Below, one piece after another: positions 30,432-61,879 of a DNA stretch of 64,000 nucleotides. Origin of the DNA: Tubulanus polymorphus (lineage: Eukaryota > Animalia > Nemertea); assembly GCF_964204645.1 (NCBI RefSeq), contig NC_134028.1:12881263-12945262 (forward strand). Reading direction: 5' to 3'. The stretch's first letter is position 1. Each line of letters begins with the position of its first letter. The notes below the pieces were generated by a model, which made no database searches, was not told the DNA's origin, and was given only the letters and a program-made list of their open reading frames with translations. The position numbers were made by a program, and so were the translations under genes.

Positions 30432-30439
30432 TAATTTTT

Positions 30440-32828: not shown

Positions 32829-32842
32829 TTTTTGCTAAATAA

Positions 32843-33268: not shown

Positions 33269-33284
33269 TTTTTTAATTATATAA

Positions 33285-34586: not shown

Positions 34587-34605
34587 TTAATTTTTTATTA
34601 TGTAA

Positions 34606-36258: not shown

Positions 36259-36271
36259 ATGAGTGGGAGTT

Positions 36272-36537
36272 AGTAATAGGGGTAATAGGCTTTCAGGCCA
36301 AAGGTCGAACGGTCGAGCTCGTAAAAATGAAAAACATAAAAATAATAACAATTTCTACTTGAATTACTCGCGAAACTCATAAAAATGAAAAATAAATTCT
36401 CACACGCTCGAATTTATTTTTCATTTTCATGAGTTTCACTCCTAATTCAAGTAGAAATTGTAATTATTTTTATGTTTTTCATTTTTACTCACCCGCCCGT
36501 TCAACCTTTAACCTGAAAGCCTATTACCCCTATTACT
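36272..36537. repeat. C left terminal hairpin (type II, 266 bp)
   Basis: Near-complete fold-back with apex aataaattc-tcacacgctc-gaatttatt. Confidence 0.95.
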
Positions 36538-36617
36538 CTTAAAATATTCATATATATGAATAACATTTAAATCATTGAACTTCTAAAATCAATTTTAATA
36601 AAAAATATAGTATTAAA

Positions 36618-39600
36618 ATGGAAGCAAATAAGTACTACTGCCCAACATGTAATATCGATATAGACAAGTCTCAAAAAGCAAGACACAATAAAACTAGAAC
36701 ACATTTAGAGAATAAATTGAAACTAGAATATAAAGATGATATATTAGAAACTAAATTAGAAGAATTAAAGAATGAAAAGGAAACATACAAATGTGATATA
36801 TGTAATCAATCATTCAGTGATAAAAGATATTATAAAGAACATTTAAAATCTATAAGTCATATTAGAAATAAGAATAATGATATTTTAGGTGAAGATTATT
36901 TTGATAATGATAACGATAAGAAACAGAACACAATTAAAAGAATAAAAAATAAATTAAACAATAAAAGACCATACATGGAAGATGTAAGAAATTATATTAA
37001 TTCATTAGATAATAAAAAAGATATAGAGATAACCGAAGCATTTAAAAGTGATATTGGTCCAGCAGCTATCGAGTTTAAATTTCATAAAAGTTAAACAATA
37101 GAAGAAAATAAAAAACATTTAGAAAATATGAAAGAAATAATAAAAATAATTACAGATGTTGAATATCCTAAAATTAGTATATCAGTTAAAGTAAAGTTTA
37201 TAAAATCTGAAGATAAACCAATATATAATATAAATTCTCATTCACAACATATTATATCTAAACAACATATAGATGATAAATTAAATAAATGTTATAATGA
37301 AATAAAAACTAAAATAGAAGAGAAATATTTTGAAGGATCTGGTTTAATATTTGATGAGATAATATTTATAACTTTACATGTTTATAACACAAAATATAAT
37401 AAGTTAACTAAATCAAAACCAATTGATGAAAATAATTTATCATATTATAAAGATGATAGTATAAATGGAACAAGTTATATTAAATTACCATTTAAAACTA
37501 ATGGTGTAATAAATATACAAAATGAAGATGATAAATGTTTTCTATGGGTTATAATAAGTTGTTTACATCCAGTTGAAGATTATAATAAACATACTTATAG
37601 ATTAACTCATTATAAACAATTTGAAAATAATTATAAGATAGATAAGTATCCTGTTAGAATTAAAAATATTCCAAAAATAGAAAGAGATAATAATCTTAAA
37701 ATAAATGTATTTGATTTAATTAAATTACCAAATACAAAAGGAAATAATATTAAACATTAAACATTAGAACCTTTATACCTATCAAAAGATTATGATTCAA
37801 ATAATGTTATAGATATACTATATTATGAGAATCATTATATGTGGATTAAACAAATCGATTTATTTTTTAGAACAGAAAGTGATCACCATAATAAAATATA
37901 TCTATGTAGAAAATGTTTACATAAATTTAGTAATGAAAGTACATTATTAAATCATAAACAACTATGTGATAATCATGATTATTGTAAATTAGTTTTACCA
38001 AATGAAAAAGATAAAATATTAGAATTCAAAAAATATGATTACAAAAATAAAGTACCATTTGTAATATATGGAGATTTTGAATCATTGAATAAAGAATTAA
38101 CAGATAAAGATAGAAAAGATATATATTATAAAAGAAAGAAATTAAATTCTAATGAAAGTGATTTTTCAGAAGAACCGCCAAAAACAAATACTATAAAAAA
38201 AAGATTCACCAATCAGCTGCAGCTTTCGGGTTATATATTAAATCTGATTATCCAGAACTAATTGAAAGTGAATATTATCAGTATAGAAATGAAAATGTTA
38301 TTAATCATTTTTGTGACTTATTAATTGAATATGAAATAAGATTTAGTAAATTATTGAATACAAATATAGAAATAATTATGACAGAAGAAGATAAAGAAGT
38401 ATTTGAGTTTGCAGATAAATGTTATTATTGTGAAAAGATATTTAATTATAAAGATAAAAAAGTAAGAGACCATGATCATTTGAATGGAAAGTTTAGAGGT
38501 GCAGCGCATGAGGCTTGCAATTTACAAGCCAAAAAAGTAAATTTTGTCCCCATTATATTTCACAATTTATCGGGGTATGACGCGCATTTATTCATTAAGC
38601 AACCTTGTCATAAAATAGAAGAAATTAATAATGAAATAGAAATATTAAATTCAAATAAATCAAAAGATAAAATACCAACTTATAAATTTAGAATGTTAGC
38701 TAAAACATCTGAGAATTATATATCATTCCAATTTGGTTGTTTAAGATTTATAGATTCATATAGATTTTTAAATAGTTCATTAGATAACTTATCAAAATCA
38801 TTAGTTGATGATGAATTAAAGATATTAAAAGAATATTACCCAAATTATGATGATTTTAAATGAATGAGATATAAAGGTGCAATTCCATATTCTTTCTATA
38901 AAAATCATAATGATTTTAAAATAACTGAATTATTGAAAGAACAATTCTATGATGAATTAAAAAATGAATATGTTAAAGATGAAGTCTATAATAGAACATT
39001 GAATATTTGGAATCATTTCAAAATAGAAAATCATGGACAATTAGTAGATTTATATTTAAAATCAGATGTATTATTATTAACCGATATATTTGAAAGGTTT
39101 AGAGATGTAAACCTAAAATATTTCAATATTGATCCTTGTCATTGTTATTCATCGCCAGGATTAACATGGGATTGTGGATTAAAATTTACAGATATAAAAA
39201 TGGATTTGTTAACAAATATAGATCAATTACTATTATTTGAAAAATCTATAAGAGGAGGTGTTTCAGGTGTATTAGGTGATAGATATTTCAATGTAAATGA
39301 TAATCCTGGATATAAATTATTATACATAGATGCAAATAATCTTTATGGTTGGGCAATGATGGAACCACAACCTTATGGGATGTTTGAAATAACTGAAGTT
39401 TTACAAATTGATAAATTTGATTGGAAGAAAAGAATCCTAGATATTGCAGATGATTCAGATATTGGTTACTTCTTTGTTGTAGATTTAGAATACCCTGAAA
39501 ATATTAAATTCAAATCTAGAAATCTAGCATATTGTCCCGAACATAAAATTGTTAAACATGAAGAATTATCAAATTATCAAAAAAGAATTAAACCCGATAA

Positions 39601-40652
39601 TCATATTCATACAGAAAAGTTAATGGTAACTCAAGAAGATAAATATAATTACGTTGTGCATTATAGAATGTTAAAATTCTATTTGAATCAAGGAATGATA
39701 TTAAAAAAAGTACATAGATATATTTCATTTAATCAATCTAAGTGGTTAGAAAAATATATAGATTTTAATACTACACAGAGAACTGAAGCTAAAACTGATT
39801 TTGAGAAGGATTACTTTAAACTGATGAATAATGCGTTCTATGGAAAAACATGTGAAAACATAAGAAATAGAAATGATATTGAGTTAGTTAGTAATGGTAA
39901 AAGAATTAGACATTTGCAATCGTATCCGAAATTCATAGGTAACAGAATATTCGATGAAAATTTAGCAGCAGTTAAATTAAAAGAACTTCTATGAAGTTCA
40001 ATAAACCTATTTATGTTGGAGCATCAGTTTTAGAAATTTCAAAGCTATTGATGTATGAATTCTATTATAATGTATTGCAACCCCATTTTGGGGAAAAAAT
40101 ATAGAAATCTTATATCTAGATACAGATTCTTACATATTAAAGATAAAAAGTGATAACATAACTGATGATTTAAAAATATTAAATCATCATTTTGATTTCA
40201 GTAACTATCCCAAAGATCATGAATTGTTTAGCAATGATAATGAAAAAGTTCCCGGGAAGTTTAAAGATGAATTAGGTGGTGAAGAAATGATAGAGTTCAT
40301 AGGTATTAGATCTAAAATGTATTCATATAAAACTAAAGAACATGAAGCTAAAAAGTTAAAAGGAATTACCAAAAGTGTAGTAGAAAAGAATATTCATTTT
40401 AAAGATTACATCAATTGTATATTTAATGAAGAAGTTAGAAAACATAAGATGAAATGTTTAAGATCTGAAGATCATGAAATGTATATTGAAGAGATAGAGA
40501 AGATAAGTCTAAACCCATTTGATGATAAAAGATATATTTTAGATGATGGAATCCACACAGTCGCGTATGGTTGCAATTTAGATGAATATATAAAATTCAA
40601 AAGAGAAGAAACAAAAGAAAATGAGATTATGAAAAGGATTCTAACGTGTTAA
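36618..40652 (+). pseudogene. C pPolB, multiple stops and frameshifts
   Basis: Six ORF fragments collinear with B pPolB. Confidence 0.95.
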
Positions 40653-40680
40653 TTAATTTCAATAAAAATGTGTATAATAA

Positions 40681-41022
40681 ATGGAGAGTAAACAAGTACA
40701 CAGTGAATTCTTAGATAGAATTAAAGATACCACAAATGTAAAATCTGTAGATTATAAATTCAAAAAACTAACTGAGTTAACAATTCACAAGAAATATTTA
40801 ATTACAAATATTGTTACAGTTACTAACAAATATGGAGATAAATTAGTTATACACTTAGAATATGAAGGATTAAAAGGAAATACACATAAATTCAGAACTT
40901 ATTTACCAGATAGATTTCATAGATTATCAAGTGAAGATTTAGAAGAATTATGTTCTGGAGATTTCTATTTCGTATACAAAGGTAAGAATGAAAAAGGGCA
41001 CCATGAAATAGATTTCGAATAA
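40681..41022 (+). CDS. C MESKQ-family (OB-fold-like) protein
   Basis: Homology to A and B copies. Confidence 0.7.
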   Translation: MESKQVHSEFLDRIKDTTNVKSVDYKFKKLTELTIHKKYLITNIVTVTNKYGDKLVIHLEYEGLKGNTHKFRTYLPDRFHRLSSEDLEELCSGDFYFVYKGKNEKGHHEIDFE

Positions 41023-41039
41023 GAAAATATGTAAAATAA

Positions 41040-41795
41040 ATGGCGGAATTAAAAGAATATAGAATATTTGTTGATTCTAGAAAACTTACAAATTATAGAT
41101 CACATAATTTACTAGTACAATTAGACAGAGAATTTAAGAATTGTGTAGATTTAAAATTAGTAAATATAAGTTTATGTAATTCTTTTTATAATATATCAGA
41201 TAAAACTTTTAAACATAGAGGGTTTATGATTTATATGAGAAATAAAGATAAATGGTTTCATATATTTTTAAAACCAGGATTATATAATTTAGATACATTA
41301 GCGCAGGAAATTAATAGAAGAGCTCGGTTGAAAATCGGGGGTACTTCTGTATTTGAAATTAAATTTAATAAAATTGATAGTACTAATAAAATAAGAATAA
41401 AGATATCTAATGAACAACATAAATTTATGGTAAACAAACCACTGGCTAAAATGTTAGGAATTAAACCTCTTACAGTTACTGGAAACGCAGAAGGCAGCTC
41501 AAATATAATACCTTTTACACACTTTTATATTTATTGCAATTTAATCGAGCCTACAAAAACTTTCGAAGCAACTAAAGAAACAATTTGTAGTTCTAGTATA
41601 CTAAATATTTTACCGCTAAAAAATGTTAAACAATTTGGAACTCAAATAAATTATAATTTAACAGATTGTGATTTCAAACCTTGTATTCCAAAATTTAATA
41701 ATTTTAAGTTAGAAATAAGAAATCACAATGGATACTTAATTGATTTGAATAATTTCCCTGTAATTTATGAATTAGTTATAAGATGTAGAGAGTAA
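41040..41795 (+). CDS. C penton
   Basis: Same motifs as 21880-22638. Confidence 0.8.
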   Translation: MAELKEYRIFVDSRKLTNYRSHNLLVQLDREFKNCVDLKLVNISLCNSFYNISDKTFKHRGFMIYMRNKDKWFHIFLKPGLYNLDTLAQEINRRARLKIGGTSVFEIKFNKIDSTNKIRIKISNEQHKFMVNKPLAKMLGIKPLTVTGNAEGSSNIIPFTHFYIYCNLIEPTKTFEATKETICSSSILNILPLKNVKQFGTQINYNLTDCDFKPCIPKFNNFKLEIRNHNGYLIDLNNFPVIYELVIRCRE

Positions 41796-41813
41796 TTTTT
41801 TTTTACTATATAA

Positions 41814-42116
41814 ATGAATATAACTGTTGGACCGAGTATATGTTTTGGGTTTGATTTTAAACGTGAGAAAGAAATGAAATTTAACATTAATGATGTAATT
41901 ACACAAATCAAAAATGTTGTATTTTCTAATGAAACAAAATTTGAGTATGAAACAACAATAGATAAAGAAACTTTAAATGTAGAAAAGATTACTAATTTAA
42001 TTAGAGAATCTTTAAGATTTTATGAATTAGATGAAGATTTTATCATCGATGATATTAAAAAAATAATAATTGAAATATATACAAATGAAACTAGTAATGA
42101 AATAAATGTTGATTGA
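41814..42116 (+). CDS. C MNITV-family protein
   Basis: Homology; same early TGA as in A. Confidence 0.75.
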   Translation: MNITVGPSICFGFDFKREKEMKFNINDVITQIKNVVFSNETKFEYETTIDKETLNVEKITNLIRESLRFYELDEDFIIDDIKKIIIEIYTNETSNEINVD

Positions 42117-42170
42117 ATCATCACTAAGATAACTAAATATTTTGATGATAGTAATTTTTTTGATAAATAA

Positions 42171-42392
42171 ATGAGTGATAATAAGTGGATAATAACTGGA
42201 TTATATAATGGCGCATTACTATCAGTTGGAACTGTTGGTTATTCAATGGTATTAAAAAAAGTATTTAAAATGGGAAGTGTTAATGTTGATAGATTTGATA
42301 TAAATGATATTTTAAAATTAACATTAGCAGTTACTTTATCTAATTTAACTATTGATTATTTGGAAAAACAAAAATATATTCCTCCCATATAA
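42171..42392 (+). CDS. C MSDNK-family protein
   Basis: Identical to A and B copies. Confidence 0.85.
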   Translation: MSDNKWIITGLYNGALLSVGTVGYSMVLKKVFKMGSVNVDRFDINDILKLTLAVTLSNLTIDYLEKQKYIPPI

Positions 42393-42416
42393 ATGCATAA
42401 TTTTTTTGTTAAATAA

Positions 42417-42839
42417 ATGGCTTCTGCAATTATAACTATTATAGGATCAGCAATTGTTAACGCTTTAGCATTTACTGGTGGTGGATATTTATTTAAACAT
42501 ATTGATAAAAATAGTTCATTAGGAGAACAAAGAAGACATAACTTAGCGTTAGAGAAATACAATAAAGCTGCAGAAGAATATAGAGAAAAGAGACAAAACT
42601 ATATGGATTACATCAATAAAGAATTATATGATCAGAAGATTTCACATAGAGATTTTCATTCAGTTGATGATGCAATGAGTTTATATAACACAGTAACAAA
42701 TAAAGAAAAATTACATCTATACAAACCTAAATTATCAGATTATTATACCCCAAGTAAAGAACAACAGAAATATGAAATAATATGGATTTTAGGTGGAACA
42801 GTTATTGTTATATTTGTTGCTTATAAGTTTACTAATTAG
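42417..42839 (+). CDS. C MASAII-family membrane protein
   Basis: Homology to A and B copies. Confidence 0.85.
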   Translation: MASAIITIIGSAIVNALAFTGGGYLFKHIDKNSSLGEQRRHNLALEKYNKAAEEYREKRQNYMDYINKELYDQKISHRDFHSVDDAMSLYNTVTNKEKLHLYKPKLSDYYTPSKEQQKYEIIWILGGTVIVIFVAYKFTN

Positions 42840-42858
42840 TAATTTTTATTCTAAATAA

Positions 42859-43293
42859 ATGGAAGATAAAGTTGATAGTATTGATATTATTCCTCATGAT
42901 ATAAATAAAACTAAATTAAAAACATATTTAGAAAAACAAATATTAGAATTTGAAAGTGACTTAAAGATAAAAAAGAAAAAATATTTAAAAAGTAAAATTA
43001 TATATTATTTGATTATAAGTGGTTCGGTTACAATTAGTTCTGTAATAACATTTTTAGCAATATTCAGCCCATTAACACCTTTAGCCATATCAATTGGTGT
43101 GTTAGGATTAAGTTCAAGTGTTTTAACTGGTATAAGTTCAAAATTAAATATAAAAAGTAATAAAGAAAAAATCAAAACTAATATAAAAGAAATTAATAAA
43201 TTAAAGAACACACTAGATTATATAATAAGTTTAAATGGTCATATAACAGTTGAAGAACAAGATAAATTATTAAAAGAATTAATAAATTATTAA
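42859..43293 (+). CDS. C two-TM coiled-coil protein
   Basis: Central hydrophobic hairpin flanked by Lys-rich helices. Confidence 0.85.
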   Translation: MEDKVDSIDIIPHDINKTKLKTYLEKQILEFESDLKIKKKKYLKSKIIYYLIISGSVTISSVITFLAIFSPLTPLAISIGVLGLSSSVLTGISSKLNIKSNKEKIKTNIKEINKLKNTLDYIISLNGHITVEEQDKLLKELINY

Positions 43294-43309
43294 TTTTTTT
43301 GTTATATAA

Positions 43310-44698
43310 ATGGTAGATAGTTTTCCAAAAGCTTTCCGATATAATAAATCAATTAAATATAATATTCCAGCAATAGATTTTAATAAAGATATTACATATA
43401 GAAATGAAGTTTTAGATTCATTAACTAATTTAGAAATTTATGTTACTGAAACTAATAATTTTAATGCAAAGATGGAAAATATATTTCATGTATATTTGAT
43501 TAATTTTAAAAAATTGAAAGATGAAAAACAATGGTTATTAAAATCTAATATGAAGTATTGGCAGAATCAATTAAATTTTGCTGTTTATTGTGCAACAACA
43601 GGATGTGGAATTAGTTGGAATGATCATTTGAATAATTCTAAATATAAACTAATTCAAAGTTTATTTAGATTTCATACATACTTTCAAATCAGAATAATAT
43701 TAAATGAATTAGAGTGCGCTTTACCAGGATCTAGATATTTTAAAGAATTAGATAATAATATTAATTTATCAAAGTTTTATAAAATTTGCAATGAATTTAA
43801 TATAGATATAAATAATTCTGATTTTAGAACAAAAATTGGAACAATAAGATCACTTCCTTGCCCTAAAAAGATTGCAGAATATTGTGCACTTCCCATACCA
43901 TCTAATAGTTTTTATAATATCTATAATAATAAATTAGGTTATGGTAAAATAGAAACAAAGGATTTAGAAACATTAAATTTCAATAAATTACCAAAATTTT
44001 ATGATAATTTAAAACAAGAAAACAATAATGGTTGGGTTTATTTTATTTTAGAAAATAGTGAAGGTTTTACTAAATCAGGTATAGAAAGAATAAATCAATC
44101 TATTAGAACTTATTTGATTTGTATTCTAGGATCACAAGTTGAAACAAGATCACCGATAATTGGAAATTTGAATACATCATTCGATACACAAAAACAATTT
44201 AAAGTTTTATTTGAAGATTCAATTCATAATGATAAAAATAGATCGATTCCAGAAAACATTATAAGATATCAAAATTATTTAGATAAATCTCATGTAAGAC
44301 TTAATTATTGTATAGGCCCTAATCTATTAATTATTTCTAATGATTTAGTATTAAAGATGGGAAATATAATTGGTTATAATAATCTAATTAAAACTGCAAC
44401 AATAAATAATTCATTTGGATTGAATGATATAAATAAAAAGATAATTACTGCTCCAAAATTAATGGAAGGTGAAAAAAATAAAAAACATATTCAATCAACA
44501 GAAACTAAAACTAAGAATATTAAATTGGATAATGATTCCAAAATAAAAGATTACAATACTACAGAAAATAATAGAACTGATAAAATTCAACATGATATAA
44601 TTAAACTAAATGATGATAATAAATCCCATGAAAATACTAAATTAGCTATAACTTGTATAGGAATTGTAATCGGAGGAATATTATATTTTAGATTTTAA
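43310..44698 (+). CDS. C WQNQLNFAVYC-family protein, C-terminal TM
   Basis: Intact 462-aa ORF. Confidence 0.88.
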   Translation: MVDSFPKAFRYNKSIKYNIPAIDFNKDITYRNEVLDSLTNLEIYVTETNNFNAKMENIFHVYLINFKKLKDEKQWLLKSNMKYWQNQLNFAVYCATTGCGISWNDHLNNSKYKLIQSLFRFHTYFQIRIILNELECALPGSRYFKELDNNINLSKFYKICNEFNIDINNSDFRTKIGTIRSLPCPKKIAEYCALPIPSNSFYNIYNNKLGYGKIETKDLETLNFNKLPKFYDNLKQENNNGWVYFILENSEGFTKSGIERINQSIRTYLICILGSQVETRSPIIGNLNTSFDTQKQFKVLFEDSIHNDKNRSIPENIIRYQNYLDKSHVRLNYCIGPNLLIISNDLVLKMGNIIGYNNLIKTATINNSFGLNDINKKIITAPKLMEGEKNKKHIQSTETKTKNIKLDNDSKIKDYNTTENNRTDKIQHDIIKLNDDNKSHENTKLAITCIGIVIGGILYFRF

Positions 44699-44714
44699 TT
44701 TTTTTATTATGTAA

Positions 44715-46400
44715 ATGGCAGAAGGTGTAGAAGATATTCCATTGGATGACATGGGAAATGATAATGAAGGATATATTGATGATGATTATAATGATGCAGG
44801 TGCTAATATTGATAATAATGATGAATCAGCATATAATACTAATTTAGGTGAAGATGATGATGATGATGTTCCCGAATCACGTGAAAAAATAAAAAAATAT
44901 TTAGAAGCTCCTGAAAGGGGTATAATTACAACTAGAAGAGAAAGAAAAGATTTAATGAATAGATTAGTAAATACAACTGATCCTGAATTGAAAGAAGATT
45001 TATATTTAATGAAATCTAGAGTAACAGATACAATTGTTAACGAATTATTACCATCAGTTGTAACAGATGAAATTGATACTGAAGATGTTGTAGAACAAAT
45101 TTTTAAAGATGACCCATATTTCACAAATAATTTAGAATTTAAAAATGATGCATGGTATTATAATCTTGATTTAAATAGGAATATTGTAACAATTCAATTA
45201 TCTAAAATGGGTCAAGAAAATATTTTTGAACCTGAAATGCGAGCAACATCTACAATTGAAAATTCAAAAGGTGGTAGAGAATTTCTCAGAATTATATGGA
45301 ATGCACTCGATAGAATAAATGAAGAAGAACCAATTCCTAAAATTAATATAAACAAATATTCACCATTTAAAAATCCAAATCCTACTGATTTTGATCCAGA
45401 AATGGAAGAGAATAGAAATCGATTAGATAGATTGAGATCTTCAACACCCGAAACATCGAGAAGAGACACTCAACAAATTGATAATTATTCAAGTAAATTA
45501 CAATTAGAAAAACAAATTGATAGATTAAGAGATTCAGAAGAACTGATGAATAGTATATCAGATACATCTGGTTCTGAAACTGGAATAAATCGACTGCAAT
45601 ATTTACTAGAAAAAGGATTTCTTAATTTAACCGATGAAGAATTAGAAGCATTTCCTGAACAAATACGTAGAGAAATTAAAGGTATACAAGTATCAGCTGA
45701 TGAAATTGCTAATATTAAGATGAGATTTTCTAAAATAACCATATTAGAAAAAGAATTAGTTAATGTAGATGAAGAATTAAAACAATTAGAATTAAATAGA
45801 AATCATCAAGTAATTTATGAAGCTGATTTTGAAAGCAGAAAGTTAGCTTTAGTAAAAGAAATAGATGATTTAGAATATAACATAAAATTACAAAAAGAAG
45901 AAAGAGATATATTATTAAAATCATATGATCTTAATCATATTAAAAAATTAAAAGTTATTTTTAAAGATTTGTTGATTAAACCAGATTCTGAAATATCATT
46001 AAAAGATAGAATAAGATTGTTATTTAAATTAGAAGGAATAACAATTCTTTCAATTCTAACAGGTGTAACTATGGTATTTACAACAATTGGTTTAGCAATA
46101 TCAAATGCTTTAAAATCTATTCCTACTCCAAATAAACCAGATAAACCTCCAGGTAATAATTCTATACAAGATAAAGTTAAAGATGGTTTAAAGAAATTAG
46201 CAAAATATTTATGGGAACTATCTAAAAAATCTGCTGCAGCATTACCAGGAGTTATTGCTTCAATTGTTGGTTTTATATTGAAATCTGCAGGAAACATTAT
46301 TAACTTTGCTGCTGAACATATTATTTTATTCTTAATTACAGTTGTAAGTGCTATTATTTTTGGTTTAGTAAATATGATATCAAAAAATATCAAAAAATAA
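44715..46400 (+). CDS. C MAEG-family acidic/coiled-coil membrane protein
   Basis: Intact 561-aa ORF with several C-terminal hydrophobic segments. Confidence 0.88.
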   Translation: MAEGVEDIPLDDMGNDNEGYIDDDYNDAGANIDNNDESAYNTNLGEDDDDDVPESREKIKKYLEAPERGIITTRRERKDLMNRLVNTTDPELKEDLYLMKSRVTDTIVNELLPSVVTDEIDTEDVVEQIFKDDPYFTNNLEFKNDAWYYNLDLNRNIVTIQLSKMGQENIFEPEMRATSTIENSKGGREFLRIIWNALDRINEEEPIPKININKYSPFKNPNPTDFDPEMEENRNRLDRLRSSTPETSRRDTQQIDNYSSKLQLEKQIDRLRDSEELMNSISDTSGSETGINRLQYLLEKGFLNLTDEELEAFPEQIRREIKGIQVSADEIANIKMRFSKITILEKELVNVDEELKQLELNRNHQVIYEADFESRKLALVKEIDDLEYNIKLQKEERDILLKSYDLNHIKKLKVIFKDLLIKPDSEISLKDRIRLLFKLEGITILSILTGVTMVFTTIGLAISNALKSIPTPNKPDKPPGNNSIQDKVKDGLKKLAKYLWELSKKSAAALPGVIASIVGFILKSAGNIINFAAEHIILFLITVVSAIIFGLVNMISKNIKK

Positions 46401-46424
46401 ATAATTAATTTTTTTGTTAAATAA

Positions 46425-47672
46425 ATGAGTGGGAGTTATATCAATCCTTCTAAGAATCATAGAATATCCAATGCTATTAAAGCAGAAAGATCACATCATA
46501 TAATTACTCATAACCCTTCAAATATTAATCCCGATGAAACTTTATACGTTAGAATTCCTCGATTAACACAAAATACTTTTTATGTTCCAAATAGTATTTA
46601 TTTATCAGCTGATATAAAAGTAATCGGTAATAATAATAATTATGTTGTTGATAATGTTGGAAGATATTTGATTAAAAAGTTAACAATAAAGATTGGTCCA
46701 GAAACAGTTTTCTCATTAGATGATTATAATTTATTTATGCACTATAAAGATTTATGGTTAACTAAAGAAAATAGAAATAATATGATATTTCAAGGAATTC
46801 AATCAGAAAACCAAAATAAATTAAGATCAGAAGCTAATAGCGCAATATTAACAAATGATGTAGATAAATTGATAAAAAGTATATATGGAAGCAAATATAA
46901 AATTCCATTAGACTTTGAATTGATAAATAATAATGCACCTTTATATAAATACGCAATTCAAGAAGATGTTATATTTGAGATAACATTTGCTCCTGTAAAT
47001 GAAATTGTAATATCTAGCGTTAATAAAGATATGAGTTATAAATTATCGAATATATGTTTAGAATATGATACAGTAACTGATGAAAATATTTCAAGTATAA
47101 TTCAAACTCAATACAATCAAGGATTTTCATTATTATATGATTATATTGATAAATTTAAAACTGTAACTATTAATGCAAATGATGAAATAATAAATGAGAA
47201 TATTAACTTCCCTAGAAGATCTATTAAAGGTATATTGATATTTTTTACTATTGGAACGTATACTAATGGCGCAATAAATGTTGACAATTATTATAATCCT
47301 GAAATAACAAAAGTAGAAATAACTATCGAAGGAATAGCAAATAAAATATTTTGTCAAGGAATGAGAATGATAGATCAATGAATAGAAATTAAAAAACATT
47401 TTATGAATGAAAAAGTAAAATCATTTGAAAATTGTAACATTAATCAAATTGATTATTATACCGGCAATAAATATGCATTATGGTTAGATTTTAGAACAAC
47501 TGAAGATAACTTATTACATGGTTCTGGGAAAAAATTACAAAATACAAAAGATGGAATACAATTATTTATGACAAAGAAAAAGGGAATCAAAAATTTTAAA
47601 ATGCATATTTATATTATATCTGACGCGCAATTAAATATTGTAAATTCACAATTAGATAGTGTTATGTATTAA
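46425..47672 (+). pseudogene. C major capsid protein, single nonsense codon at 47379-47381
   Basis: DQW changed to DQ*; otherwise collinear with A and B. Confidence 0.82.
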
Positions 47673-47704
47673 AATTTTAACTTAAATAAAAATGTATATA
47701 ATAA

Positions 47705-48637
47705 ATGGAAGGAGGTAAAGTATATAAACATATTCCATACATCGATACATATGAAAATAATGATGGTTTATATTATGTAATACCTTGTAATATAGCTTTG
47801 ATATTTGATCCTATTTTTAAAAATTATAAAACTAAACTGATAGAAATCGATAATAATAAAAATGGTGTTGTTAATAATAGTGTAATTGATAATAATGTAA
47901 TACCTACTACTACATCTGTAATACCTACTACTACATCTGTAATACCTTCTACATCTAATAATGTAATACCTTCTACATCTAATAACATAATACCTTCTAC
48001 ATCTGTAATACCCTCTACATCAAATAATATAATACCTTCTACATATAATAATGCAATAATATTAAATGTTAGTGAAAATAGAAATTATTGTGATTATTGT
48101 AATGGCGAATTTTCAAACGCTCCATCAAATTGGAATAAACATATGAATACAAATTCACATATTACTAATGTTATAGAACGTGTTGGTTTAAGAGAATTTA
48201 TAGAACACCCATTTAGATATGTTACAAAATTTGTTTCAAATAAAAAAGTAAATGGTGAAAAAATATATGAAGATTTATTATTAGCAACACCTAATAAAGA
48301 TGAATTAGATTTAACCGATGCTAATGAAATATTAGGATCAAACACTGTAAATGAAATATTAGGAGCAAACACTAATAAAGATGATAATGAAAATGGTGCC
48401 ATACACCCACATGATGATATAGTTACAGTTAAACATATTGATAATAAAGATTCTATAAAACTTAAAGTAGAAAATAATAATAAATTTGATTGGAAGAATA
48501 AGTTTAAAAATGAAACAACTATTGATGATTTAGTAAAAAATATGAAAAAGGTAAAAAAGGTGAAAAAGGTGAAAAAGGTGAAAAAGGTGAAAAATAATAA
48601 ACCAATTATTTATGAAGATACGGTAGCATTTAAATAA
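47705..48637 (+). CDS. C MEGGK-family Zn-finger protein with expanded VIPSTS and KKV repeats
   Basis: ORF and homology to A and B copies. Confidence 0.82.
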   Translation: MEGGKVYKHIPYIDTYENNDGLYYVIPCNIALIFDPIFKNYKTKLIEIDNNKNGVVNNSVIDNNVIPTTTSVIPTTTSVIPSTSNNVIPSTSNNIIPSTSVIPSTSNNIIPSTYNNAIILNVSENRNYCDYCNGEFSNAPSNWNKHMNTNSHITNVIERVGLREFIEHPFRYVTKFVSNKKVNGEKIYEDLLLATPNKDELDLTDANEILGSNTVNEILGANTNKDDNENGAIHPHDDIVTVKHIDNKDSIKLKVENNNKFDWKNKFKNETTIDDLVKNMKKVKKVKKVKKVKKVKNNKPIIYEDTVAFK

Positions 48638-48850
48638 ATTGTTAGCGTCTGATAGTGAAAGTGATTCAGAAATTGATTATCTAAAACTTGAATAATAAAG
48701 GTTAAAAATTGTATAAAATAATAGTAAATAAAAAAGGGGTTTAAATTATTTAAGGTATCTAATAGGGTATCAGGTATTAGGGTATTAGGTATTAGGGTAT
48801 CTAATAGGGTATCAGGTATTAGGGTATCTAATACATAGGTATACAATTAG

Positions 48851-49462
48851 TTATTTTATAAATTTATATTCATATGGAAATTGTAATCTCATAAGTAATT
48901 TTGAACCTTTATTATTCTTTAATTTATTCATATATTCATCATGTAATTCAGTAGGTATAATTTGATTTTCTTCTAATGATTGTTGCATAGATTTTTTATC
49001 TTTGTTATAAAATAAAACTAGAAATCTTATATTCTCTCTAAAATCTTTCACAATTGAATTATATTTCTGATTTAAAACCCAAGTTGTTATCCCAAAATGT
49101 CTACCAGAGAAAGCTAAATAACATAACTCACTTTCTCTAATTTTAGAATCATGTAAATTTGCGCAATCATCAATAATAAATAATGTATTTGATCCTTTAT
49201 AAATATCTAATGCAATTTATATACAATTATCTAAATTTTCTTTTACTGTTTTAGGGTCTAATATAATAAACTTTTTTATCTTAACTATATCTCTATTATA
49301 TGTTTCATTCATTTCATAAGTAGGACAGAATAATATTATATTATCAAAATGATTTTTATAAATAGTTTCTAATAAATCTAATATGAAGTGTGTTTTACCA
49401 CAATTTGTAACTCCAGTAACTAACATATTATGCGGTTCAAATATAAATAAATCTTTATTCAT
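48851..49462 (-). pseudogene. C packaging ATPase, stop at 49217
   Basis: Aligns with 10359-10976. Confidence 0.9.
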
Positions 49463-50543
49463 TTATTCTTTTAATTTTACTAGATAAAATCCATTCATTA
49501 AATTTATCATCATATCCTTTATATTTCACCAAAGAATACTTTTTTCCTTTAAGAGTTTTTGTTTTCAATACTTTTCCTATTTTGTATTCTATTTCATCTG
49601 GATTTGGTACTAATGATAATTCTTGTTCATAAAAATAACCTAATATTTCTTCATCTTTTAAATCAAACAATTTATAAACAAATGGTTTAGTTAATATTAT
49701 CTTTTTAATTTTAAATATTTCTTCTGTAAAATTTGGGGTATAACCTTTATAAAATGTTTTTCGTTATTTAGAAATTCTAACATGTTGTCCTATTTTAAAT
49801 TTAGGTTCTCCAAAATCATGTGTAACAAATGCTCCATATAAATTATTCCAAACTATTTCTGAATTTTCTTCTTTTCTAGCTTGTATAGGTTTCATATTTA
49901 TAGAACTATGTTTAGAATTATTATAACCTTTAACTAAATCATCTAACACATCGATATATTTATATGTTTCATTAGCGGTGAAATATTTCCACATTCTAGT
50001 TTTCAATGTTTTATTAAATCTTTCTATAACAGATGCTTTTTTATCTGAATGTGTTGAAAAATATTCTACATCGTTATCAGATAATAGTTTTTTGAAATGT
50101 TTGTTATAAAATTCCTTACCTTCATCAAATTGTATCTTATCTGGAATAGCTTCTTTAAATATAGATTTAAAAGCATTTGTTACTTCTATACCAGTTTTAT
50201 TTTTAATCGGGATACTCCATGCGTATCTACTGAATATATCTATAACATTTAGTATCCAAAAATATCCTTTGTTGTATTCTTCTAAGTTTTTCATGTCAAT
50301 TAAATCTGCTTGCCATTGTTGATCGATATATGAAACCATAACTTTTCTTGTTAAATATTTTTTATCCATCTTTTTATGAATTTTATATGTTGGTTGATTT
50401 TGTAACCATGATTTTAATTCACTATATTTTATTTTTTCTTTATCAGATTTAATTTTATTCCATAATTCCGAAACACTTGAATATGAAACTTCACTTTCTG
50501 GGTTATAATATAAATCTCTTAAATATTGTTCTTTTTTCATCAT
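49455..50543 (-). pseudogene. C integrase-chromodomain, in-frame TAA at 49764-49766
   Basis: DDE core followed by EYKIGKVL..LVKYKGY..NEW. Confidence 0.92.
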
Positions 50544-50546
50544 ATT

Positions 50547-50930
50547 TTAATCCATTAATAATATTTTAGATTTAGTTTCATTTGATTTATTTTCTAGTAT
50601 GATAGGTTTATTATCATTGGAATCATCTTTATCATCGGATTTGAATTTTGATTTATATATTACACCGGATAATATAATAATTGTGATTAACCCAATTGTA
50701 ATATATAAGTAATTATTTCTTCTACTATTAGAAGAATTAGATGGATTATTATTTGAATCAATACCACCGTGTGGGTGCCGTACGGCATCATCAGATAATT
50801 TCTGTGATTCATTTATATCAGTTAATTTCTTTTTCTTAGCTTTTTTTAATTCTGATGATCTTTTACCTAATTCTCTTGCCCATTTAATTTGTTTCTCGGA
50901 TCTAGCCTTTTTCTTAACTCCATCACTCAT
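50547..50930 (-). CDS. C basic single-TM protein (MSDGV family)
   Basis: Lys-rich N-terminus plus one hydrophobic segment. Confidence 0.8.
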   Translation of the reverse strand: MSDGVKKKARSEKQIKWARELGKRSSELKKAKKKKLTDINESQKLSDDAVRHPHGGIDSNNNPSNSSNSRRNNYLYITIGLITIIILSGVIYKSKFKSDDKDDSNDNKPIILENKSNETKSKILLMD

Positions 50931-51525
50931 TTATTTTAGTTAATTTTTGTTCTGATTCATTTTCTGTTTCGACGTTTTGTTGTAGTACATCTGTTTCGTT
51001 CTTACCTGATTTATATTCCATAGGTTTGATGTTCGAAAATGTTATAACTCCAGTAGAAATCAATGTCATAACCGATCCTAATTGAAATGAAGCATAACCA
51101 ACCCATTTTTGTAATTCAGTCATAACTAAGTAGTCATTTTTCAAATCACTATATAATTTATTTTCATCATCAATTGGTATTAACTGGTTACATAACTTAG
51201 AATAACATTTGACAATACCATCACTTATAGAGTCGTTTATTCTAGCTAATCTTGACTCTTCATAAATCTTAAAATATTTTATTACTTTATCGGGTTTCAT
51301 AGAGTCTAGTTCTTGAAAAGTTATTATTTTTCCTAAGAAGTCCTTAGATTTCCCGCCAGCAATTAATAATTCAAGATGATGCTTACAATATAAATAGTAT
51401 TCATAATCTATATTGTTATTAACTTGAGCACAATTAGTTGCAACTGTATCTTTATTATCACTTATACCCAAATCATCTAATGTTTTTTCAATATCAATAC
51501 TATTCTTAGTAGATTTCTTTGACAT
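50923..51525 (-). CDS. C MSKKS-family protein
   Basis: Homology to A and B copies. Confidence 0.85.
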   Translation of the reverse strand: MSKKSTKNSIDIEKTLDDLGISDNKDTVATNCAQVNNNIDYEYYLYCKHHLELLIAGGKSKDFLGKIITFQELDSMKPDKVIKYFKIYEESRLARINDSISDGIVKCYSKLCNQLIPIDDENKLYSDLKNDYLVMTELQKWVGYASFQLGSVMTLISTGVITFSNIKPMEYKSGKNETDVLQQNVETENESEQKLTKINE

Positions 51526-51828
51526 TTATATTAAAGAAAAAAAGCAAAAAAAAATATTATAAGTATTCTTCAAATGATATTAGATAGTTAAAGTTAAAGA
51601 ACTCTAGTATTGACTACTGATACTAGCTATTTGAATTTAAAGAATTTCTATTCGGATCTATTCAAAATATAAAGTATTCTCTTCTTGAAAAGAAAATATT
51701 AAAAATATAACAGAATTCACTAGCAGTTGAAGTTATTGTTTTTTTAATATATTTTATTTGAATTCTATTTGATATCTCACTACTATTGTCTATCTATTAG
51801 GAGCAGTAACTATAACTGTCCAGATAAG

Positions 51829-52503
51829 TCATTTCGGATCCTTGATATCAAATTCCTCAACATATTGTTCATTCTGTGGGTTACTATTCCACCAATCAAT
51901 AAATTTCCTTGCTTTATTCAACTGTTCCAAATATAATTGTAAATCTAGTTTATTAGATTTGGTTTGATTTTCTTTCTTTTCTAAAGGCCTTAAATTTTTC
52001 CAACCCCAAATAAGTTTTTTATTGTATTCATCATTCATGTTAAATTTAGATATTGGTAACACGTGATCAATGTGGTAATAATCCCCATAATTATCTATAT
52101 TCATTTTATCATCGAATTGAAATATTATCCATGATTTGAGAAATTCATCTGAACAACCCAATAAATTAGATAGTGTTTCTGAATGCGTTTCTTTGTTGAA
52201 TAATTGTGTTAATCTAGACCTTAAGCATTGTTTCAATCTAAAATTAAGATCTGTTTGATATCTTTCTCTCATATATTTTGTCATATAATAATTATAATGT
52301 TTTATATTATCTTCTCGATATTGTTTGGTGTATAGTTTAGTACAAGTTTTACAACAATATTGAAAACCATCTTTGCTAATCTTACGCTTACTAAATTCTG
52401 TTAATGATTTATCTAATTCACATTTAGAACATTTCTTGTAATATATGTTTATAACGCCAGTGTTATTTGTAATATTGATAGTTTGTGGTTGTTCTGGTTC
52501 CAT
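51829..52503 (-). CDS. C Zn-finger/HNH endonuclease
   Basis: CSKC..CKTC; HIDHVLP..NLRPL...N..K.N. Confidence 0.85.
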   Translation of the reverse strand: MEPEQPQTINITNNTGVINIYYKKCSKCELDKSLTEFSKRKISKDGFQYCCKTCTKLYTKQYREDNIKHYNYYMTKYMRERYQTDLNFRLKQCLRSRLTQLFNKETHSETLSNLLGCSDEFLKSWIIFQFDDKMNIDNYGDYYHIDHVLPISKFNMNDEYNKKLIWGWKNLRPLEKKENQTKSNKLDLQLYLEQLNKARKFIDWWNSNPQNEQYVEEFDIKDPK

Positions 52504-52645
52504 TTATTATACATATTTTTTTACTAAAACTGATTTATTTTTGTTTGAAATCTATGTGCTGCTCTTTTCCATTCCTTGTTCTTTTTCATTCCTCGCCGCC
52601 GTAGTTGATAAATCATTTCGATTCCTTGATATCAAAATCATACAA

Positions 52646-53215
52646 GCGGCCGGCCATTTATGGCCGGTTTTGCTTAATGCGCATGCGTTAAACATAATTA
52701 TATATTCATTCTATAAATTCTGTAAAATAGAAACGACCGACATGAAATATCAAAACGTGTTCGCATTAGGCAAAACCGCTCTTATTGGAGCGTTTTTGCT
52801 TAATGCGCATGCGCTAATCATAATTATATATTCATTCTATAAATTCTGTAAAATAGAAACAACACATGTGTTACATGTATCACTTGCGGCCATTTATGGC
52901 CGGTTTTGCTTAATGCACATGTGTTAATCATAATTATATATTCATTCTATAAATTCTGTAAAATAGAAACAACATATGCGTTACATGCGTTGCATGCGTT
53001 ACATGCAGCCATTTGTGGCCGGTTTTGCTTAATGTATATGTGTTAATCATAATTATATATTCATTCTATAAATTCTGTAAAATAGAAACAACTGAACATA
53101 GAAAATTCAAACGCATTCATGTCTGCGTCACATGCGTTACATGTGTTACATGCGGCCATTTATGGCCGGTTTTGCTTAATGCGTATGTGTTAAACATAAT
53201 AGAAACGACTGAACA
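52646..53215. repeat. About five degenerate tandem units of 120-140 bp
   Basis: ggccatttatggccggttttgcttaatg...aattctgtaaaatagaaac recurs. Confidence 0.85.
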
Positions 53216-53717
53216 TAAAAATTCACAAATCAGATTTACACAATACATTATACAAGTTGTTCAGTCATTTCTTCTAATACATCATTTGATTTCTATAAAT
53301 ACAATTTATAATTACAAACATTTTTTCAATTGCTGGTAAATATTTAACTACATCAACAAATGATAAACTTAATCATTGGAGTCTCAATGTTTTTGAAATT
53401 CTTATATTTCTTCTTCGATCTTTTGGTGATTCTATTGGTTTGATATCCATTGTTGTTGATTCCTCAGTCAGAAAGAGTATCTTGAGTTTCTCTATCGCTT
53501 CTTGATGTGTATGATGTTTTATTAATCTAAAAGATATTAGCGGCAACTCTAACTATCTAAAAGATATACTAAATACACTTAAATATATCTAAAGGTTTCA
53601 TATTTAATAGCTCTAATAACTACAACAAACAGTACTTACATTTAGATTTATAATTGTAAACTATAAACTCCTAATTTCGTTTCGAAAGATAGAATATCCT
53701 GAGCACAATATTACAGC

Positions 53718-53835
53718 GTATATCCATTTCCGGGGCGATTTCTAGAATGACACGTCGTTGATTATACCACGTCATCTAGTTCCGGCGCGCCTTTCTAGAA
53801 TATTCTACACGTTTCTGATTATGACGTGTCATAAT
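53718..53835 (-). promoter_or_regulatory. Candidate stress-responsive Pol II promoter (HSE, UPRE/CRE-like, ETS-like motifs)
   Basis: TTCtaGAAtaTTC 53793-53805; TTCTAGAA 53740-53747; CCACGTCA 53767-53774; ATGACGTGTCAT 53821-53832; TTCCGG twice. Confidence 0.45.
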
Positions 53836-54158
53836 ATCTCGTTGTTATAGTAACAACCGTAACAGCTGCGAATTTATAGATTTATTCTATAGCTCTGTAC
53901 ATTGAATGTATATAGGCTCAAATAGAATCATGTTTTAGTATAAACATCTAGAACAAGCGTGTTGAGACTTGTAAATTATGAGATTTGTGATTCGCTAACG
54001 TTCGCCGTATACACAACGCGTTGAAGTTGAAAAAAATCAATAATAAAAGCATTTAGATCAATGAAATTAATTAACTCTTTACAATTGAAATATAAGGTGG
54101 TAATATATGTTTACTAGAGTTAATACAACCAACTATATAGCTGAGTATTATCGGGTGT

Positions 54159-54332
54159 TTATAACGATTCAACGTATTTTTCACTATGTGTTGAGTTCCT
54201 TAATTCGATAAATGTTTTTGCTTTAACCAACTGGACTAAAAACAAATGTGTTCTAGTTTTATTGTGTCTTGCTTTTTGAGACTTGTCTATATCGATATTA
54301 CATGTTGGGCAGTAGTACTTATTTGCTTCCAT
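54159..54332 (-). CDS. Chimeric mini-ORF (57 aa): pPolB Zn finger fused to HNH tail
   Basis: Manual translation MEANKYYCPTC...KTRTHL-FLVQLVKAKTFIELRNSTHSEKYVESL*. Confidence 0.45.
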   Translation of the reverse strand: MEANKYYCPTCNIDIDKSQKARHNKTRTHLFLVQLVKAKTFIELRNSTHSEKYVESL

Positions 54333-54412
54333 TTTAATACTATATTTTTTATTAAAATTGATTTTAGAAGTTCAATGATTTAAATGTTATTCATATATAT
54401 GAATATTTTAAG

Positions 54413-54678
54413 AGTAATAGGGGTAATAGGCTTTCAGGTTAAAGGTTGAACGGGCGGGTGAGTAAAAATGAAAAACATAAAAATAATTACAATTTCTACT
54501 TGAATTAGGAGTGAAACTCATGAAAATGAAAAATAAATTCGAGCGTGTGAGAATTTATTTTTCATTTTTATGAGTTTCGCGAGTAATTCAAGTAGAAATT
54601 GTTATTATTTTTATGTTTTTCATTTTTACGAGCTCGACCGTTCGACCTTTGGCCTGAAAGCCTATTACCCCTATTACT
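54413..54678. repeat. C right terminal hairpin (type II)
   Basis: Inverted copy of 36272-36537. Confidence 0.95.
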
Positions 54679-55914
54679 GGAGTTATATAAGTCCTTCTAA
54701 GATTTCTAGAATATCTAATGCTATTAAAGCAGAAAGATCACATCATATAATTACACATAATCCTTCAAATATTAATCCCGATGAAACTTTATATGTTAGA
54801 ATTCCTAGATTAACACAAAATACTTTTTATGTTCCAAATAGTATTTATTTATCTGCCGATATAAAAGTAATCGGTAATAATAATAATTATGTTGTTGATA
54901 ATGTTGGAAGATTAAAAATTAAAATTTTTTAATTTGATTAAAAAGTTAACTATAAAGATTGGTCCAGAAACATTAGATGATTATAATTTATTTATGCATT
55001 ATAAAGATTTATGGTTAACTAAAGAAAATAGAAATAATATGATATTTCAAGGCATCCAATCAGAAAACCAAAATATATTAAGATCAGAAGCTAATAGCAC
55101 AATATTAACTAATGCTGTAGATAAATTGATAAAAAGTATATATGGAAGCAAATATAAAATTCCATTAGACTTTGAATTGATAAATAACAATGCGCCTTTA
55201 TATAAATACGCAATTCAAGAAGATGTTATATTCGAAATAACATTTGCTCCTGTTAATGAAATTGTAATATCTAGCGTTATTAAAGATATGGGTTATAAAT
55301 TATCGAATATATGTTTAGAATATGATACAGTAACTGATGAAAATATTGCAAGTATAATTCAAACTCAATACAATCAAGGATTTTCATTATTATATGATTA
55401 TATTGATAAATTTAAAACTGTAACTATTAATGCAAATGATGAAATAATTAATGAGAATATTAACTTCCCAGGTATATTAATATTTTTTACCATTGCAACA
55501 TATACTAATGGCGCAATAAATGTTGATAATTATTATAATCCTGAAATAACAAAAGTAGAAATAACTATCGAAGGAATAGCAAATAAAATATTTTGTCAAG
55601 GAGTGATATTGATTGATCAATGGCCAGAAATTAGAAAACATTTTATGAATGAAAAAGTAAAATCATCTGAAAATTGTAACATTAATCAAATTGATTATTA
55701 TACCGGCAATAAATATGCATTATGGTTAGATTTTAGAACAACAGAGGATAATTCATCACATGGTCCTGGAAAAAAACTACAGAACACTACAGATGGAATA
55801 CAATTATTCATGACAAAGAATAAAGGAATCAAAAATTTCAAAATGCACATTTATATTATATCTGACGCGCAATTAAATATTGTAAATTCTCAATTAGATA
55901 GTGTTATGTATTAA
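54679..55914 (+). pseudogene. A major capsid protein (first codons at 36259-36271), disrupted
   Basis: Aligns with C capsid; small indels. Confidence 0.82.
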
Positions 55915-55946
55915 AATTTTAACTTTAATAAAAATTTATATAATAA

Positions 55947-56714
55947 ATGGAAGGAGGTAAAGTATATAAACATATTCCATACATCGATACACATGAAAAT
56001 AATGATGGTTTATATTATGTAATACCTTGTAATATAGCTTTGATATTTGATCCTATTTTCAAAATTTATAAAACTAAACTAATAGAAATCGATAATAATA
56101 AAAGGGGTGTTGTTGATAATTTAAGTAATGTAATTGATAATAATGTAATACCTTCTACATCTAATAATGTAATACCTTCTACATCAAATAATGTAATAGT
56201 GAAAATAGAAATTATTGTGATTATTGTAAAGGCGAATTTTCAAACGCTCCATCAAATTGGAATAAACATATGAATACAAGGGTACATATAAATAATGTTA
56301 TAGAACGTGTTGGTTTAAAAGAATTTATAGAACACCCATTTAGATATGTTACAAAGTTTGTTTCAAATCAAAAAGTAAATAGTAAAGAATTATATAAAGA
56401 TTTATTATTAGCAACACCTAATAAAGATGAATTAGATTTAACCGATGCTAAGAAAATATTAGAATCAAACACTGTAAATGAAATATTAGGAGCAAACACT
56501 AATAAAGATAATAATGAAAATACAGGAAAGCGCATTGATGATAAAGATTCTATGAAACTTAAATCAGAAAATAAAGATATAGTTTAGATGACTAATAAGT
56601 ATATCAATAAACCAATTATTTATGAAGATACGGTAGAGCATTTGAATAAATTATTAGGGTCTGATGATGAATTGGAGAGTGATGATGAAAGTGATTCAGA
56701 AAGTAATTATCTAA
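55947..56714 (+). pseudogene. A MEGGK-family protein, frameshift and stop
   Basis: Homology to B and C copies. Confidence 0.8.
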
Positions 56715-57254
56715 CACTCAAAAAGTAATAAAGGTTGAAAATTGTATAAAATAATAGTAAATAAAAAAGGGGGTTTTAAGTATTAAGGTATCTAATACGT
56801 ATTTAATACATATCTAATACATATCTAATACATATCTAATACATATCGAATACAATCTAATACATAAAATATCTTATTTTATAAACTGATATTCATATGG
56901 AAATTGAATCCTCAGTAATAATAAATAACCTTTATTATTTTCAAACTAATTCATATATTAGTTGAAAAAATAAAAATAAATTGGTTGAAAATTGTATAAA
57001 TAATATTTATTTTTAAAAAGGGGGTTTTAAGTAATTAAGGTATCTAATAGGGTATCAGGTATTAGGGTATCTAATAGGGTATCTAATACATAGGTATATT
57101 TTAAACATATTTCAATATTTATATTTGTATGAGTTAGATTTTTAAACATTAAAAGTGTTAGTAAAGTTTTATTGAAATAATTCATATATATTCATGAATA
57201 ACATATTAATGAATAACTTCTAAAATCAATTTAGTAAAAAAATATGTATAATAA

Positions 57255-60073: not shown

Positions 60074-60081
60074 AATAGAAA

Positions 60082-61789: not shown

Positions 61790-61879
61790 CTATTTATATA
61801 TCTATTCTATAAGAGCTTACACTTTTATATTGAATAATCTGTCAATTTAAATATTATTCATTTACATGAATATTTTAAG

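Follow-up and report, generated by a model that had tools for sequence, protein, structure and literature searches.

The 64,000-nucleotide window analysed here, taken from the nemertean Tubulanus polymorphus (contig NC_134028.1, positions 12,881,263 to 12,945,262), holds three nested copies (A, B and C) of one AT-rich Polinton-type element, and nearly all genes of this element begin at the sequence TAAATG behind a run of T or A residues. As judged from its distribution, the motif is a real, specific and conserved signal, and the known phenomena of its kind are the sharing of helper promoters and the Polinton-like viruses (PLVs) associated with poxviruses. We consider it somewhat probable that the element is a virophage-like, Polinton-type parasite that would depend on a poxvirus-type helper, with the helper's RNA polymerase transcribing its genes in the cytoplasm.

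In copy C, 14 of the 16 genes start at TAAATG, compared with 45 of the 733 other ATGs on both strands (6.1%; Fisher p = 8e-15). When open reading frame (ORF) calling was simulated as the first ATG after an in-frame stop, TAAATG was found at 6.9-9.3% of the starts; the value at the upstream regions' own 88% A+T was 9.3% (p = 4e-13). The original prediction, made from the sequence of this window, had named pPolB (TAAAATG) and the integrase as the only two exceptions among 16 genes. This count is confirmed, all the gene starts that it listed lie where it placed them, and the enrichment holds under three backgrounds (p from 1e-13 to 1e-15). Within positions 40660..52530, the ratio is 14 of 15, since the pPolB start (36618, TAAAATG) falls outside. 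Over copies A, B and C together, which are close relatives and therefore not independent, 39 of the 46 starts examined are TAAATG; the seven misses are three pPolB genes, three integrase genes and one MSDGV copy in which the ATG has been lost.

All 14 TAAATG starts carry an upstream run, which consists of at least five T residues at eight starts (T-class) and at least four A residues at six (A-class); the pPolB start also lies behind an A-run. At the 45 non-start TAAATG sites, such a T-run occurs once and such an A-run six times. Two upstream classes had been predicted, and both are present; the ATPase and MSDGV genes, initially left unclassified, have an A-run. The proposed assignment of capsid and membrane genes to the T-class is valid for the major capsid and most hydrophobic proteins; it fails for the penton-like protein and the packaging ATPase, which are A-class, and the T-class proteins MNITV and MSKKS have no assigned function. 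Counted from the ATG, the end of the T-run is at -10 in six of the eight T-class genes of copy C and at -12 in two. In all 15 tandem pairs examined in copy C and the related locus L001, it ends at -9 to -12, with a distance from the upstream stop of -11 to +312; this constancy over spacers of 3-325 bp indicates that the T-run belongs to the downstream start. Of the 22 T-class regions, 21 have a T ten bases ahead of TAAAT, and the usual gap is 6 bp; as the class was picked by T content, only the position of that T is informative. In the A-class, A residues at -18 to -13 are followed by T at -12 in 18 of 21 regions.

The motif was also scored in four related metagenome loci with 74-77% capsid identity (ORFs of at least 90 aa) and in 25 pPolB-bearing viral control loci, L008 and 24 others. 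TAAATG heads 28 of the 34 ORFs of the four relatives; the misses are mostly cut or broken ORFs, and one is the integrase of L004. The integrase of L002 starts at TAAATG. In the relatives, the motif also heads two genes that are absent from the window: that of a deoxynucleoside kinase, where a complete T7 run precedes it, and one coding for 125 aa. New genes thus get fitted with it. In L008 (38% GC, pPolB 31% identical), TAAATG is present at 6 of 6 starts, and in the other 24 loci at 16 of 259. The AT-rich controls L026 (22% GC, 1 of 11) and L011 lack it. In the ordinary Mavericks L009, L017 and L021, T5 at -16 to -12 precedes 1 of 46 starts. Strict TAAATG is thus special to the window family and L008, and the fixed T-run is special to the window family. 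Two pPolB trees pair the window with L008, one with support 86 (22 rows, a long-branch warning and an incomplete search) and the other with support 85 (FastTree, 19 rows, C-terminal part, L018, L027 and L029 left out); the integrase tree leaves the pairing unsettled. Given the modest pPolB support and this integrase tree, a shared origin of the motif in the window family and L008 is suggested by the sequences and not more than that. The integrase of L008 (2740-4251, 503 aa) is extended at its N-terminus by about 150 residues which, on visual inspection, resemble a protease and have no Pfam match.

The vaccinia late promoter consists of a T-rich core, a gap of 5-7 bp and TAAAT(G/A), in which the G usually overlaps the start codon (PMC5294985), and has a conserved T ten bases before TAAAT (PMC11980589). 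The T-class shares TAAATG, the 5-7 bp core spacing and this T; the predicted late promoter layout is therefore borne out in motif and spacing for 8 of the 14 TAAATG genes. Vaccinia intermediate promoters have TAAA without that conserved T, and an AT-rich stretch followed by T (PMC11980589); the G8R promoter ends in TAAAATG and has its core between -26 and -13 relative to the start site (PMC12917281). The A-class has in common with them TAAA and an A-rich stretch followed by T, and the pPolB start shares TAAAATG with G8R. TAAA is read by the viral polymerase itself (PMC12917281), and slippage at a TAAA-type initiator leads to 5' poly(A) leaders (PMC6211774). Unlike the vaccinia promoters, the putative promoters described here belong to an 18-kb integrating element without a detected polymerase. 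AT-richness and hairpin ends, which had also been taken to fit a pox link, do not support it: the AT-rich L026 lacks the motif, and hairpin ends were rejected as evidence because terminal palindromes have been described for protist virophages and PLVs (bioRxiv 10.64898/2026.07.28.741278).

According to the mechanism that we propose, TAAAT would be the initiator, RNA would start on its A residues, and slippage of the polymerase would add a poly(A) leader joined directly to the AUG. With such a start inside TAAAT, the T at -3 would never enter the message, and the missing leader would be accounted for. The T-run would mark late genes, i.e., those of the major capsid and most hydrophobic proteins; as a less sure step, pPolB, the single-strand binding protein, the nuclease and the ATPase might form, by their A-run, an earlier class of intermediate type. 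In the time from one helper infection to the next, chromosomal copies generated by its integrase would maintain the element. In a poxvirus factory, intermediate and late transcription can use free DNA and early transcription cannot, and this rule fits the lack of a shared early motif in the element. The early-promoter word AAAANTGAAAA is found eight times in the window, six times in the terminal repeats of copy C and never in those of A or B; being largely confined to the former, it was not counted as evidence. The route by which nuclear copies would reach the helper polymerase and the deviant integrase start are left unexplained by this proposal.

The claim that the element has no RNA polymerase agrees with the searches. 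Pfam profiles run against the 55 frames of at least 60 aa overlapping copy C gave no match to a subunit of a polymerase, to TBP, TFIIB or a late factor, or to a protease, and neither did the comparison of 14 proteins with PHROGs. The comparison of MVDSF, MSKKS, MNITV and an extra gene of L001 with solved structures gave weak unrelated matches and none of these proteins.

Several observations weigh against transcription by a poxvirus-type helper. Counted from the first A of TAAA, the A-run occupies about -16 to -11, compared with -26 to -13 for the G8R core. The fixed T-run is present at 0 of 6 starts in L008, and in L005, which has the same capsid and MVDSF families (32-35% identity), both starts (2 of 2) are TAAAATG. 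The genes of the single-strand binding protein and MNITV switch class in L001, and neither the three window copies nor L004 have TAAATG at the integrase start. In the Mavericks L009, L017 and L021, TAAA is found near the ATG at 11 of 16, 10 of 14 and 14 of 16 starts (35 of 46 in all), and an upstream A5 at 7 of 16, 8 of 14 and 8 of 16 (23 of 46), with p-values that are overstated since the background was all other ATGs, mostly coding. The A-class is therefore not special to the window family and may be a wider Maverick trait. Some protein without an assigned function could be an unrecognised transcription factor; in poxviruses, there are such factors that were found only by structure and missed by sequence searches (PMC12917281). 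No helper candidate was found: when viral contigs were scanned for the T-class pattern, 56 of them had one chance match each and none had three or more TAAATG starts, and L087, which contains the nearest viral relative of the L001 kinase (37%) on a contig of 49% GC, has TAAATG at 2 of 18 listed ORFs. The chromodomain integrase and the many chromosomal copies point to a nuclear phase. The intermediate-like reading of the A-run keeps its TAAA and AT-rich upstream sequence and is weakened by the closer spacing, the class switch in L001 and the similar pattern in ordinary Mavericks.

It is quite possible, although short of probable, that a lineage of integrating animal Polinton-type viruses copied the post-replicative cascade of poxviruses, with intermediate-like replication genes and late capsid genes; the chromosomal copies would then be a fossil record of an undiscovered pox-type virus of the host group, and perhaps an inducible defence against it. 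In the boldest form of this reading, the A-run and TAAA of Mavericks would be the same initiator, and many animal Polintons would be helper-dependent.

The motif might also be a compact, family-specific promoter or translation context used by the host's RNA polymerase II in the nucleus, together with factors of the host or unrecognised factors of the element, the pox likeness being convergence on AT-rich DNA. We regard this as unlikely. The looser A-run and TAAA before Maverick starts are in line with it, the chromodomain integrase and high copy number suit nuclear life, and a figure legend in PMC8502044 lists TBP-like genes in related viruses. However, neither the 55 frames nor the solved-structure profile searches gave a TBP or TFIIB match, and the motif extends over the ATG, with no leader left and gene spacers of 16-54 bp. 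In the animal nucleus, AATAAA on the sense strand favours early cleavage. This word is not depleted in the element (71 in 13.7 kb of sense strands compared with 65 expected from codon shuffles), which is a weak argument since most control loci are undepleted too.

A pox-like polymerase could come from another source, either a different large DNA virus (for example, an egovirus or an asfarvirus relative) or a cytoplasmic linear element whose polymerase is reduced, like yeast pGKL; this appears rather improbable. The yeast elements use a TAAAN initiator, poly(A) leaders made by slippage and a polymerase of their own (PMC6211774), egoviruses have been reported to stand nearest to the poxviruses, and AAAAT or TAAAT motifs occur upstream of genes in some iridoviruses (PMC5294985). 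Against this source, the known late motifs elsewhere differ, being TATATA in pacmanvirus and African swine fever virus (PMC11788076), and the ATNTGA box of yeast was not seen as a common feature of the aligned upstream regions. In the portions of the literature examined, the T-run, 6-bp gap and TAAATG are described together only for poxviruses.

It is very improbable that the T-run is the terminator of the upstream gene and that TAA-ATG serves stop-start translational coupling. In tandem arrays, the run often begins 1-9 bases past the upstream stop, T-rich terminators are known in asfarvirus relatives (PMC11788076), and TTTTTNT is mildly depleted on coding strands (5 compared with 10.7 expected). 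Nevertheless, this depletion is also observed in the controls L011, L020 and L021, TAA is the stop of the upstream gene in 0 of 10 pairs, and the run is absent where the next gene is A-class; its anchoring to the downstream ATG whatever the spacer length largely refutes the coupling. The AATAAA and TTTTTNT counts both fail to separate the family from the control loci. Chance in a sequence of 76% A+T, aided by ORF calling, has a negligible probability: no triplet precedes ATG more often in the element than TAA (45 of 733), yet a composition artefact is refuted by the enrichment, by the AT-rich L026 and L011 and by L008.

The predicted gene content and ends of copy C (Table 1) are those of a Polinton/Maverick: pPolB, rve integrase, terminal inverted repeats, a 6-bp duplication, a double-jelly-roll capsid and an A32-type ATPase. 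The same sequence comparisons do not reveal the classical Maverick PF21738 capsid and C5 protease or a virophage-type capsid. The integrase matches PF00665 (E = 1e-9), and the ATPase matches Pox_A32 (E = 2e-9). The protein that we take to be pPolB from its family-B motifs has no Pfam polymerase match; it is 31-37% identical to the pPolBs of Mavericks and virophages, forms a 1224-aa ORF in copy B and groups with those of L009, L017 and L021 (support 98). The fold model of a capsid relative (79% identical, predicted local distance difference test score of 87.5) best matches capsids of nucleocytoplasmic large DNA viruses (NCLDVs; E = 3e-19). The capsid of copy C has a weak Capsid_N match and none to PF21738, which three Mavericks among the control loci match, and capsid searches of phages and viral contigs gave no match. 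Pfam gave no C5 (adenovirus-type) protease in copy C; controls match the PF21738 capsid and the protease, or one of them. The Sputnik major capsid protein family has no match in the element and matches control L006 at E = 4e-41. For MESKQ, the best solved-structure match is PRD1 P12 (E = 4e-3), and the best viral match is a phage single-strand binding protein (E = 4e-5). The 251-aa gene, a candidate for a single-jelly-roll minor capsid protein, has only a weak DUF5901 match. The pPolB, capsid, ATPase and integrase genes are interrupted in copy C.

Table 1. Copies of the element in the window, their ends, and the genes of copy C (positions in the window).
Feature	Position	Strand	Description
Copy C, integrated Polinton-type element	36272..54678		18,407 bp, 24.5% GC; lies inside copy A's gene for the major capsid
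Copy A, outer element enclosing B and C	2595..62271		same starts
Copy B	6535..27555	-	sits within the pPolB gene of copy A; same starts
Target-site duplication GGAGTT (6 bp)	36266..36271 (left)	+	right repeat 54679-54684
Left terminal inverted repeat, 435 nt	36272..36706	+	outer 266 nt (36272-36537) form an imperfect palindrome
Right terminal inverted repeat	54244..54678	-	100% complementary to the left; palindrome 54413-54678; duplicate pPolB start inside
pPolB	36618..40652	+	several broken frames in copy C; TAAAATG start, A-run ending at -13
MESKQ, 113 aa	40663..41022	+	A-class TAAATG at 40678; predicted oligonucleotide-binding (OB)-fold single-strand binding protein, PRD1/phi29 type
251-aa gene	41022..41795	+	A-class TAAATG at 41037; labelled "penton" (minor capsid) in the original prediction
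MNITV, 100 aa	41796..42116	+	T-class TAAATG at 41811, T9
MSDNK, 73 aa	42153..42392	+	T-class TAAATG at 42168, T7; hydrophobic
MASAI, 140 aa	42399..42839	+	T-class TAAATG at 42414, T7; hydrophobic ends
MEDKV, 144 aa	42841..43293	+	T-class TAAATG at 42856, T5; likely two membrane helices
MVDSF, 462 aa	43292..44698	+	T-class TAAATG at 43307, T7; unnamed conserved family (144 relatives), hydrophobic C-end
MAEGV, 561 aa	44697..46400	+	T-class TAAATG at 44712, T7; acidic variable N-part, hydrophobic C-part
Double-jelly-roll major capsid	46407..47672	+	T-class TAAATG at 46422, T7; stop after 318 codons in copy C
MEGGK, 310 aa	47687..48637	+	A-class TAAATG at 47702; zinc-finger-like motif, low-complexity repeats
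A32-type packaging ATPase	48851..49480	-	A-class TAAATG at 49465; interrupted after 81 codons in copy C
rve integrase, C-terminal chromodomain	49455..50543	-	interrupted after 259 codons; no TAAATG, TAAAAT a few bases upstream
MSDGV, 127 aa	50547..50948	-	A-class TAAATG at 50933; basic N-part, one hydrophobic stretch
MSKKS, 200 aa	50923..51543	-	T-class TAAATG at 51528; unnamed family (243 relatives)
HNH/endonuclease VII-like, 224 aa	51829..52521	-	A-class TAAATG at 52506

The target duplication is GGAGTT for copy C, matches at five of six positions for copy B and is absent for copy A. Imperfect palindromes of 266-405 bp are located at every end (36272-36537, 54413-54678, 2595-2989, 61880-62271, 6535-6939 and 27152-27555), and their arms share one orientation at all six window ends. 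Covalently closed hairpin ends of the poxvirus type have flip and flop forms; closure is invisible in integrated DNA. The strand bearing the 3' end folds with 5-9 G-T pairs at 6 of 6 ends and the other strand with 0-2, which hints at a single-stranded 3' hairpin. A stand-alone palindrome of 141 bp, built from element end sequence, lies at 583-723 among other scrambled element fragments. The GIY-YIG-like fragment at 1294-1875 on the minus strand has no Pfam match, and by eye we presume a likeness to Penelope-type retroelements, which would agree with an animal host.

Copy A thus carries B in its pPolB gene and C in its capsid gene, a nesting that suggests either insertions piled up by self-targeting or a hot spot for insertion into AT-rich DNA. 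The block from HNH to the ATPase (56877-61786) is inverted in copy A relative to B and C, with a remnant of the ATPase tail at the break. A second, non-coding insertion is present at 13487-17680 (copy B) and 30432-32831 (copy A); the two are about 98% alike, both lie at T-runs, and the one in copy A splits the T-run ahead of MEDKV. About 1.7 kb (52540-54240) with five 87-base repeats is found only in copy C, and three of these repeats carry a minus-strand TAAATG without a long ORF. In one DNA run (1934 million letters), 25 of the 30 bins into which the examined stretch was divided had a read depth of about 270-1380, and 1675 reads exit the left end into differing flanks, from which it follows that the element family has many insertions; simple arithmetic on this one run gives about 260 per gigabase of genome at depth 500. 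Another run, presumably of RNA, yielded two short partial pieces, which speak neither for nor against transcription. Fifty reads of run X6 link the pPolB start region (36615) to the MESKQ start region (40679), skipping 4063 bases with seven letters that fit both sides; in some copies, pPolB has apparently been deleted between a pair of similar A-class sites. Read depth is about 10-fold lower over the N-part of MAEGV (44731-45963), where copies A, B and C are strongly divergent, and this part is apparently a hypervariable domain.

When the element is compared with known systems, mavirus-type virophages, endogenous virophages and transpovirons, for which helper promoter sharing is established (bioRxiv 10.64898/2026.07.28.741278, PMC11788076, PMC11464507), are alike in pPolB and rve integrase, integration into the host genome, a single helper-type motif ahead of most genes and no polymerase. 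The motif here is pox-type, with two upstream classes, and not that of Cafeteria roenbergensis virus or mimivirus; the capsid is not a virophage one, and the host is an animal. PLVs found in entomopoxvirus occlusion bodies have been proposed to be poxvirus parasites (Barth et al. 2024, PMC11296320). Each of these four PLVs has a gene for an adenovirus-type protease, and in two no integrase is known (PMC11296320); in contrast, the window element has an integrase and no detected protease. The available text of that paper contains neither "promoter" nor "motif", and the available supplement has TAAATG twice, in repeat tables. Mavericks/Polintons ("adintoviruses", PMC8502044; coral polintoviruses, PMC11131425) share pPolB, rve integrase, A32 ATPase, double-jelly-roll capsid, terminal inverted repeats starting with AG and the 6-bp duplication. 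The word "promoter" is absent from the accessible part of PMC8502044; coral polintoviruses are described with a late-factor homologue and an entomopoxvirus-like gene (PMC11131425). Yeast pGKL1/2, which are linear and AT-rich elements of the pPolB type, likewise have a TAAAN initiator resembling that of poxviruses, and differ in having their own polymerase and the ATNTGA box (PMC6211774). The control Mavericks have a PF21738 capsid and neither strict TAAATG nor the T-class, whereas the window element has an NCLDV-like capsid fold and no protease was detected in it. To our knowledge, pGKL1/2 do not integrate and have no capsid. We found no report of pox-type promoters in Polintons in the accessible literature searched, most subscription papers and the polinton-supergroup reviews being outside its scope.

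These results address two questions about animal Polintons, namely by what means their genes are transcribed and whether they live as free viruses or as parasites of larger ones, since a promoter signature would name the kind of helper. If transcription by a poxvirus-type helper is true, the relationship known from mavirus would be extended to poxviruses, with sequence evidence beyond that given in PMC11296320. The share of TAAATG starts would then provide a cheap screen for sorting Polintons by helper, and an undiscovered pox-type virus would be predicted in the host group.

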